DNA of 38,467 nt, from the IMG/VR virus record IMGVR_UViG_2850796239_000007, positions 1-38,467 of that record. The stretch is one strand, 5' to 3'. The notes below the pieces were generated by a model. The model saw nothing but the letters and a program-made list of their open reading frames with translations. It was not told the DNA's origin and searched no databases. Position 1 is the stretch's first letter. Every line of letters starts with the position of its first letter. Origin of the DNA: a virus (taxonomy: Duplodnaviria; Heunggongvirae; Uroviricota; Caudoviricetes). The position numbers were made by a program, and so were the translations under genes. This document shows positions 13,086 to 13,754 of the stretch, in pieces.

Positions 13086-13699
13086 GCGAGATTTGAGACG
13101 AAGGTTGTTATTTGCACTGACACAATATTGTGTGGGAATGTCTGACTCCTTACCATCTCCTGTTCTGTGATGTTGTTTTGTTGCAGTTCCAGTGCTCTTT
13201 TTTCAGCACCAGAATGGTGCATTGTCGGTCAGGTTACGTAGTGAACCTCTGGCAGGGGACTGATAATGCATCATTCTGGTGTTGTAAATATCTCTTCGGA
13301 CAACTTACAAAATATTCTAAGCAAACCCCGGGAACACACTCTTAACTGCCTTGGCTGGCGGTTTTTTGTACAGTACTCGGTATGTGTGAGCTGGAAATCA
13401 GATTTTGCATGGACTGGAATCATGCTGTTATTTAGGGGCGAAGAACTGGCTTTTTCTTCCGCCTTCTCACCAGTAACGATTAGAAAAATAATGAAATGCC
13501 CCCCTCCGGGGAGGAGGACCGTAGAAAAAAGGACCCGCCAGCAAAAACATTGGGGATGAACAGCTTTCGCTACTCAGATTGCTGGCGGGTAAAGTTCCTC
13601 ATGAATTAAGAATGCTACGCGATCTTTTTTAATGGAAATGAAAATTATTGTCAATTAGTCGTGCGTGTTTTTTCATACAATATTGGTAAAGGTGATTCA

Positions 13700-13730
13700 G
13701 GCCATCAGAGTTTTGCTGATGGCCTTTTTT
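13700..13730 (+). terminator. Rho-independent terminator
   Basis: GGCCATCAG-AGTTTTG-CTGATGGCC hairpin followed by T6. Confidence 0.7.
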
Positions 13731-13754
13731 CTTTCCGATAGCACAGGTCTGTCG

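Follow-up and report, generated by a model that had tools for sequence, protein, structure and literature searches.

Many lambdoid phages place tRNA genes between the antiterminator gene Q and the holin gene S, and Stx phages carry their toxin genes in the slot between these tRNAs and the holin. In the window (the whole 38,467-nt stretch of caudoviral DNA analysed here, IMG/VR record IMGVR_UViG_2850796239_000007), this slot shows no obvious gene, and the original prediction was that it might encode a small RNA or be a remnant of deleted cargo. What, then, occupies it? The reading that we favour, and hold to be probable, is an untranslated leader of the Q-dependent late operon, placed between the tRNA cluster and the lysis cassette. 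It is a mosaic of two portable non-coding modules, termed A and B, which are distributed independently of each other.

The predicted order of Q, tRNAs, slot and S was recovered. Upstream lies a gene for a DUF1133 protein that also matches Phage_antitermQ (Pfam), and directly 3′ of this Q-like gene, both here and in a related prophage of strain RMDEC465 (L001), is an isrK-like short terminated unit (12612-12690). A promoter-like site (TTTGCA-18-TATTAT, 12736-12765; promoter scan) precedes a cluster of four phage tRNAs on the + strand (12775..13085; ARAGORN, Rfam tRNA and the PGAP annotation of L001), namely a CAU tRNA called Met (Ile according to PGAP), Arg-UCU, Thr-UGU and Gly-UCC. The left edge of the stretch had been placed exactly, as tRNA-Gly(UCC) ends at 13085. 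Downstream, a P21-type class II holin is the first gene of the lysis cassette (15218..15433, + strand; PF04971, 121 bits) and marks the ancestral right border. The layout is ordinary for lambda-like phages. In lambda, pR′ is followed by the 6S RNA and tR′, and this and further terminators are read through by Q-modified polymerase; the 12612-12690 unit is comparable to lambda 6S in being short, terminated and immediately 3′ of the Q-like gene.

The right edge of the stretch, at 13754-13758, is the insertion point of an ISEc20 element (IS110 family; 13759..15207, minus strand), which was absent from the original prediction. The element was identified by Pfam, by 98-99% identity to ISEc20 copies and by the empty site in a relative, and its DEDD-type transposase (13784-14980, minus strand) matches PF01548 and PF02371. 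L001 joins 13758 straight to GGCGGGAT-ATG of the P21-type holin, so that in this uninterrupted form the holin ATG lies 12 nt past the end of the stretch and the gene-free interval of 13086-13758 (~670 bp) is the whole gap between tRNA-Gly and the lysis cassette. The target was a G-run between the leader and the Shine-Dalgarno region of the holin, with a duplication of about 2 bp (GG). Because of the insertion, the holin start is now at 15218, a shift of 1.45 kb. The uninterrupted form of the exact stretch was found in 9 complete genomes and the identical insertion in 6 viral contigs; strains RMDEC465 and CFSAN029787 are examples that carry the uninterrupted form. Judged from the empty site, ISEc20 is a later insertion between the holin-proximal terminator (t2, below) and the holin, and not part of the original leader; lying between the late promoter and the lysis genes, it probably affects the ability of this prophage to lyse its host. 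Between the 5′ non-coding end of ISEc20 and the target site, bridge-RNA-like complementarity amounted to matches of 6-7 nt only.

We confirmed that 13086-13758 contains no convincing open reading frame (ORF): the longest span 97, 71, 61 and 50 aa and have no homology. The original prediction would have yielded to a conserved protein-coding gene identified by homology, and none was found with Pfam, PHROGs or tblastn. Six ORFs were compared with Pfam and PHROGs without a match at E < 0.1, a tblastn search with the 97-aa ORF (13266-13559) against 50,697 phage records was empty, and PGAP annotated nothing here in the 9 complete genomes with an identical stretch. The 97-aa ORF also straddles the boundary between modules A and B, each of which is found elsewhere without the other. 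The 3′ part of the stretch differs from its common variant by indels of 1, 2 and 3 nt, and its substitutions show no 3-nt periodicity (20/12/11, P = 0.18). We give hardly any credence to the idea that one of the short ORFs (13266-13559, 97 aa; 13496-13609, 37 aa; or a 63-aa ORF of the common variant) is a real small protein. PGAP does call the last of these, as the hypothetical protein WP_000502162.1 over the 3′ part of module B in some genomes; however, that frame passes through a terminator hairpin, carries a disrupting 1-nt indel in the window, and goes uncalled in most genomes, including that of locus L003. The 37-aa ORF differs in frame and length in the common variant, and the candidates as a group lack family matches and codon periodicity.

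Non-coding DNA at this position could equally be the residue of a deleted toxin or moron gene, or a functionless neutral spacer. The interval does occupy the Stx slot, flanked by a Q-like gene, tRNAs and a holin; its G+C content is below the window average (43.8% versus 49.2%); and 85 bp between the two modules (13300-13384) are found only in the window's phage type. Alignment with relatives, however, recovered homologous non-coding modules and never a cargo gene in the interval. Across 91 distinct loci that carry the hairpin of module A, the interval from hairpin to holin start is short and gene-free (246-1932 nt, median 538), the longest distances belong to copies with an insertion sequence, and two different holin families follow. 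The related toxin phage SerU-LTIIb has its toxin genes 3′ of the endolysin, outside the tRNA-holin interval. No gene fragments were detectable with Pfam, PHROGs or tblastn, both modules are kept far beyond this phage, and the changes in module A preserve its structure. The interval thus shares the position of a cargo slot but holds neither a cargo gene nor a remnant of one. We consider the residue-or-spacer explanation very unlikely and already largely refuted; as far as these comparisons go, deleted cargo is not supported, and the prophage interval appears to consist of conserved non-coding RNA elements rather than an emptied toxin slot. This removes a false lead, namely that the prophage had lost a toxin gene from the Stx position, and indicates that the tRNA-to-holin interval of this lambdoid group is densely filled with non-coding control elements rather than empty.

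In module A (13086-13300, + strand), a multibranch domain and a U-run precede a 31-bp hairpin whose CUGGCAGGG loop is invariant. The module came to light when the stretch was searched against the 50,697 phage records with Megablast and blastn, which gave partial matches only (71-74% identity). It is present behind tRNA-Gly(UCC) in 397 of 5426 complete E. coli genomes (blastn), in up to five copies per genome and almost never annotated, and pattern scans found it in 93 to >119 IMG/VR stretches. Lysogens of phi80 such as DH5alpha are among the carriers. Module A lies 3′ of tRNA-Thr and tRNA-Gly(UCC) in phage SerU-LTIIb, which has two copies, in phage vB_EcoS-683R6 and in a prophage of E. ruysiae. 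A divergent copy in a Shigella prophage (L010), recovered with a covariance-model search, is tRNA-less and keeps the stem and the CUGGCAGGG loop motif. Among holin loci of 62 species representatives, both modules were restricted to Escherichia and Shigella.

The first domain of module A (13113..13203, + strand) has a cloverleaf-like multibranch fold, seen in the minimum free energy fold and in an RNAalifold consensus. This consensus, built from 43 distinct sequences, contains a multibranch domain closed by GGCACUG/CAGUGCU, a U-run and the long hairpin. In the window, the nearly invariant closing helix (GCACUG/CAGUGC), common to both folds, pairs 13114-13119 with 13190-13195 and is followed by the U-run at 13198-13203; taken alone, the domain has weak folding support (z −1.95). 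A tRNA origin of this domain is not supported, with no Rfam tRNA match at E ≤ 5; ARAGORN made a single, intron-containing call at the 70% threshold, in the window copy only.

The long hairpin (13200..13290, + strand), which the original prediction had missed, is the strongest structure of the region, folding at −48.0 kcal/mol on the + strand (z −9.0) versus −31.0 on the minus strand. It forms 31 nested pairs in the window copy (29 in the family model), the first of which take part of the U-run, and its apical loop carries the invariant CUGGCAGGG (13249-13257). Across 53 distinct sequences, pairing was maintained in 95% of 1541 cells, compared with 32-60% when the partner was slid. Changes on both sides of a pair occurred in 18 cells at 4 pairs (7.1 ± 1.7 in shuffles), a count in which fewer compensatory changes were observable since the search patterns used to collect homologues had partly fixed the 3′ arm. 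The many alternations between G-U, A-U and G-C pairs are tolerated on the + strand only, and the module A covariance model likewise separated the two strands (76.8 versus 42.8 bits). One mismatch in the hairpin is itself conserved across the family.

Known RNAs offer several points of comparison for module A. In E. coli, 3′ETS-leuZ is an sRNA derived from the 3′ external transcribed spacer of a tRNA, and the T4 tRNA cluster contains the stable ‘species 1/2’ RNAs. Module A is likewise structured and directly 3′ of the last tRNA of its operon, and by analogy with 3′ETS-leuZ it would be released by processing of the tRNA precursor. It differs from these RNAs in having no sequence relation to them, in being much longer, with a 31-bp duplex, and in its tRNA-less L010 copy. 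Phage transcripts also contain hairpins that RNase III processes, such as lambda sib and the T7 early sites. Module A is similar in its duplex of more than 22 bp, its G-U pairs, its single conserved internal mismatch and its location in a long polycistronic transcript, and the long hairpin provides the duplex of about two helical turns or more that characterizes RNase III sites. It is plausible that the nearly perfect duplex is such a site and would be cut by RNase III. Transcribed together with the tRNAs, module A would most likely function as an RNA element for processing or stability.

The invariant loop motif is not among the known features of RNase III sites, a hint that it has some other partner. 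Could module A instead represent a novel family of regulatory phage RNAs that does a specific task of its own and is more than a passive signal for processing? We think this unlikely, but two forms of it can be envisaged. The module might serve as a switch through which holin expression is tied to transcription of the tRNA operon, an option raised because the U-run can either terminate domain 1 or join the base of the long hairpin; or the conserved loop might be recognized by a protein of the host or the phage, for which the module would be a partner or decoy. Rfam searches of the whole window at the gathering threshold, and of 12500-15300 at E ≤ 5, returned only the tRNAs and chance miRNA-like matches at the long hairpin. 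No Rfam family covered module A in 19 related loci, and a full-text literature search for four motif sequences found no relevant paper. By these searches, module A is the sole element here that goes beyond catalogued ones, being unnamed and absent from Rfam. This widespread RNA behind phage tRNA-Gly now has an alignment, a consensus structure and a covariance model with which it can be annotated.

Behind module A, within the 85 bp peculiar to the window's phage type, is a moderate terminator-like hairpin on the + strand, t1 (13344..13370; AACUGCC/GGCGGUU followed by a U-run; −10 kcal/mol, z −2.8). It is present in the window-type sequence only. In this phage type, the trailer of the tRNA operon probably ends at t1 and would thus run from the last tRNA to 13344-13370.

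Module B, a block directly upstream of the holin (13385..13758), was found in 1451 of 5426 complete E. coli genomes, the window's sequence having 84-88% identical copies in about 1450 of them. Its neighbours in intact prophages are a DNA methyltransferase region on one side and a class II holin on the other. Remnants that have decayed and lost the holin are found beside iss, both on ColV-type plasmids and close to pap islands. The copies fall into about four closely related lineages (84-100% identity), and viral contigs, examined as a further source of diversity, contained the same two sequence types only. The conservation of module B may therefore come partly from recent common descent and from hitch-hiking with iss or pap islands.

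A block that travels with the holin and ends in a terminator shortly before it might be the true late promoter region of the lysis operon, with a pR′-like promoter, Q-binding and pause sites and a tR′. The ~370-bp block does contain AT-rich promoter-like hexamers. However, it occurs behind three types of antiterminator (DUF1133, ydfT-type and ‘antiterminator Q family’), whereas Q-responsive promoters are Q-specific and normally lie directly 3′ of the Q gene. That place is held, here and in L001, by an isrK-like unit at 12612-12690, made up of a promoter and a short terminated RNA. Moreover, the sole promoter-like site of the block on the + strand (13464-13492) is no longer correctly spaced in the common variant. 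A late promoter within module B is thus highly improbable, and we retain the reading of the block as part of the leader.

The central feature of module B is an inverted repeat. The original prediction had described one of 11 bp; the repeat is real and perfect, but it has 12 bp and lies 4 nt further right, with an outer stem of 13533-13544/13579-13590 around a 34-nt loop that contains an inner 8-bp hairpin with a GAAA loop. Shuffling the region produced a perfect repeat of at least 12 nt with a loop of at most 60 nt in 0.25% of cases. CC and U6 (13530-13525) come directly after the stem on the minus strand, and on the + strand an A-run precedes it; the repeat and U6 together span 13525..13590 (minus strand; assigned from folding and substitution pattern). 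Compared with the common variant, all four substitutions (4/4) fall in unpaired positions, leaving the stem invariant and the loop variable. The repeat and its surroundings are the best-conserved part of module B in all lineages. A loop of 34 nt is unusual for a terminator.

Upstream of the repeat on the minus strand is a candidate antisense body start and promoter (13591..13654), with a −35 TTGACA (13654-13649), a 17-nt spacer and a −10 TAAAAA (13631-13626). In the common variant, the minus strand carries the promoter TTGACA-18-AAAAAT some 90 nt upstream, a 10/12 match (L002, 4270-4241), and the −35 TTGACA is kept in all variants. The window's own version failed the promoter scan, its −10 lacking the conserved final T; because this element reads TAAAAA, expression of the putative antisense unit appears doubtful in the window. 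Taken together, the inverted repeat and U6 form the terminator-like 3′ end of a putative minus-strand antisense RNA of ~90-95 nt. If it is made, this unit (~95 nt) would converge with the tRNA trailer.

The same elements could instead act only in cis on the + strand of the late mRNA leader, without an antisense RNA, as a processing site or as a structure that tunes holin translation or mRNA stability. The repeat folds well on the + strand (−27.7 kcal/mol, z −4.0), the entire stretch is more stable on that strand (−213.7 versus −180.6 kcal/mol on the minus strand), and the antisense promoter of the window is weak. Variants of the repeat divide by strand: a C-to-U change in a plasmid copy (L068) keeps pairing on the + strand alone, whereas another variant (L234) keeps it on the minus strand alone. 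Against a + strand-only role, folding of the repeat is stronger on the minus strand (−31.6 kcal/mol, z −5.2), where two pairs of the inner hairpin are G-U that on the + strand would be C-A mismatches. The U6 tract 2 nt past the stem likewise exists on the minus strand alone, and in the common variant the 10/12 promoter is correctly positioned on that strand. We therefore assign the + strand-only version a minor but appreciable probability and continue with the putative antisense unit. Just beyond the end of this unit, a second terminator-like site on the minus strand (13498..13519) consists of a G+C-rich hairpin with a U-rich tail; its C-run is polymorphic in length, and neither strand pairs consistently better between variants.

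Pairs of convergent sRNAs occur at moron sites of lambdoid phages downstream of pR′ (AgvB/AsxR and the EcOnc RNAs; Tree et al. 2014, PMC4104026). The interval studied here likewise follows the Q/pR′ cargo region and precedes the next conserved late gene, and its analogue of such a pair would be the facing units that end at t1 on the + strand and at the inverted repeat with U6 on the minus strand. AgvB and AsxR differ from these units in size and sequence, and the Rfam families STnc100 (RF02076), AgvB (RF02702) and AsxR (RF02703) had no match in the window even at E ≤ 5. As for the small RNA of the original prediction, conserved structured non-coding modules and terminators on both strands bear it out in part, but no known sRNA family is present in the window.

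A closer parallel in position is offered by PasA and PasC, sRNAs of enteropathogenic E. coli encoded next to a holin gene but on the other strand (Pearl Mizrahi et al. 2021, PMC8550237; Zhu et al. 2026, bioRxiv 10.64898/2026.05.13.724894). They lie directly upstream of a class II holin, are ~80-95 nt long and end in a G+C-rich stem with poly-U, and the putative unit in the window is alike in these respects: its repeat (13533-13590) with CC-U6 is on the minus strand ~170 nt upstream of the uninterrupted holin start. The motif GCCAGCA occurs both in the PasA/PasC stem and in the window's repeat. The window stem differs in its 34-nt branched loop, and the upstream neighbour is a tRNA trailer here and the nanS-p esterase gene for PasA/PasC. 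Homology to PasA/PasC of strain E2348/69 was rejected: blastn gave chance matches of 10-16 nt only, and local alignment scores were within the range of shuffles (18-26 of 500 shuffles scored as well), so the likeness is one of position only.

PapR, an sRNA of uropathogenic E. coli (PMC4546395), relates to module B through its neighbourhood. Using as query the PapR 3′ end and terminator taken from the published cloning primers, we found a PapR-like match with 2 mismatches on the minus strand of both L002 and L003 (3886-3907), and none anywhere in the window. In these two loci, which have the common variant of module B, a PapR-like sRNA (minus strand) and STnc100 (+ strand; 114.5 bits in L002) are immediately left of module B; in the window, the tRNA trailer takes their place. 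The idea that the −10 of PapR lies at the left edge of module B was rejected, as the promoter scan placed the promoter outside the block. Phage 683R6 has a weak STnc100-like match 3′ of its hairpin module. From their arrangement in these genomes, PapR, STnc100 and the window's elements appear to belong to the same non-coding neighbourhood, the known sRNA-rich late leader, of which the elements in the window would be further members. Were the antisense unit expressed, it would add another prophage sRNA at the site where PasA, PasC and PapR-type regulators of host virulence genes are located.

The leader ends in the strong terminator that had been predicted. This intrinsic terminator, t2 (13699..13735, + strand), consists of a 10-bp stem at 13699-13725 followed by TTTTTTCTTT, and has the structural characteristics of an intrinsic terminator (10 bp with 6 G-C pairs, −17.3 kcal/mol, z −3.4). 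In the uninterrupted form it lies 40 nt upstream of the holin ATG. The sequence around it (13684-13733) has no substitutions relative to the common variant, where ~6 were expected, and its stem has decayed only in remnants without a holin. Upstream of P21-type holins from many Enterobacteriaceae, 26 of 52 distinct genes had a same-strand terminator within 200 nt, compared with 9.6% of control windows (P = 1e-13). These terminators are most often 39-53 nt before the ATG, and half of the sampled holins had no detectable one. Because the terminator sequences differ, it is position and not sequence that is conserved. For annotation, a terminator ~40-50 nt before P21-type holins in many Enterobacteriaceae is a reusable element.

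From its position, its invariance and the enrichment of terminators before holins, we infer that t2 blocks unmodified polymerase and is read through by the Q-modified enzyme. An unmodified polymerase, such as one that started at the tRNA promoter or arrived by read-through, would be halted at t2, and holin and endolysin would be made only after antitermination. An intrinsic terminator in the late leader would then make expression of the lysis genes dependent on antitermination, by analogy with lambda pR′-6S-tR′. Unlike lambda tR′, t2 is a second, promoter-distal terminator, located just before the holin, and the tRNA genes upstream of it appear to be served by a separate promoter. Such an insulating terminator would be a simple explanation for how lysogens can express prophage tRNAs and morons without leaky lysis. 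A + strand promoter candidate ahead of t2 (TTGTCA...TACAAT) was rejected for its spacer of 22 nt.

Between t2 and the insertion point is a small hairpin (CCGAUAG...CUGUCGG; 13734..13758, + strand; −10.6 kcal/mol, z −2.7), delimited by alignment with the empty site. In the uninterrupted form it abuts the G-rich Shine-Dalgarno region of a dual-start (M1/M4) holin and would thus border its ribosome-binding site in the late mRNA; from what is generally known of lambda S and S21, it is a possible analogue of the lambda sdi structure.

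An ISEc20 element (IS110 family) occupies positions 13759-15207 of the window, inserted in a G-run 10 nt 5′ of the holin ATG, with a GG overlap of about 2 bp at the insertion site. The identical insertion is shared with six IMG/VR contigs of the same phage type. As a result of the insertion, 1.45 kb carrying an opposing gene now separates the lysis genes from the late leader, the gene-free stretch 3′ of tRNA-Gly. In an e14-like region (L238), a further ISEc20 copy adjoins 27 nt that remain of this holin start, and on the basis of this junction the sequences suggest that the holin start is a site-specific target of ISEc20. 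ISEc20 is also flanked by tRNA-Arg and the terminase genes, without an intervening lysis cassette, in O145:H28 prophages (L237, Escherichia coli O145:H28 strain 95-3192, 1500-3600), where deletion of the lysis genes may be associated with the element.

The leader itself varies. The G-run preceding the holin Shine-Dalgarno sequence (13754-13758 in the window) contains 4 to 8 G among otherwise identical copies, and the C-run in the G+C-rich hairpin (13499-13506) 4 to 6 C. One IMG/VR viral contig (L088, 183-2265) carries the holin-upstream block twice, together with the long hairpin of the tRNA-Gly trailer module in one complete and one truncated version; from its sequence, this arrangement indicates that parts of the late leader have been duplicated or rearranged there. 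The trailer module also occurs at 99.6% identity in one DH5alpha assembly (H109), presumably on the phi80-derived prophage.

In the common prophage type (L002, 3698-3990), the immediate left neighbour of the holin-upstream block is a pair of small RNAs, STnc100 (+; 114.5 bits) and a PapR-like sRNA (-), which are convergent and end back to back. The PapR-like sRNA has a promoter (TTGCAA-18-TATTAT) and a terminator at 3914-3893.

Rfam matches identified three modules of isrK, C4 antisense RNA and a1/b1 target, at 5378-5566 (-), 7645-7846 (+) and 11760-11958 (+) of the window. They are similar to the P1 immI-type antirepressor control cassette, here present threefold in one prophage. The third copy is followed by an ORF6N gene (12010-12567), 3′ of which lies an isrK-like unit of about 75 nt with a strong terminator at its end (GCCCGCTTTATGCGGGTTTTTTT; 12612-12690). 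In a relative without ISEc20 (L001, 3505-3620), this unit is instead positioned directly 3′ of the Q-like gene (DUF1133/Phage_antitermQ). By analogy, the unit looks like the counterpart of the lambda pR′-6S RNA-tR′ segment.

Close to its left end (463-607 and 2169-2347), the window contains the SraC/RyeA-SdsR/RyeB core sRNA pair as well as RalA, an antitoxin RNA of Rac-type prophages, which places the prophage next to ryeA/ryeB in an Escherichia chromosome.
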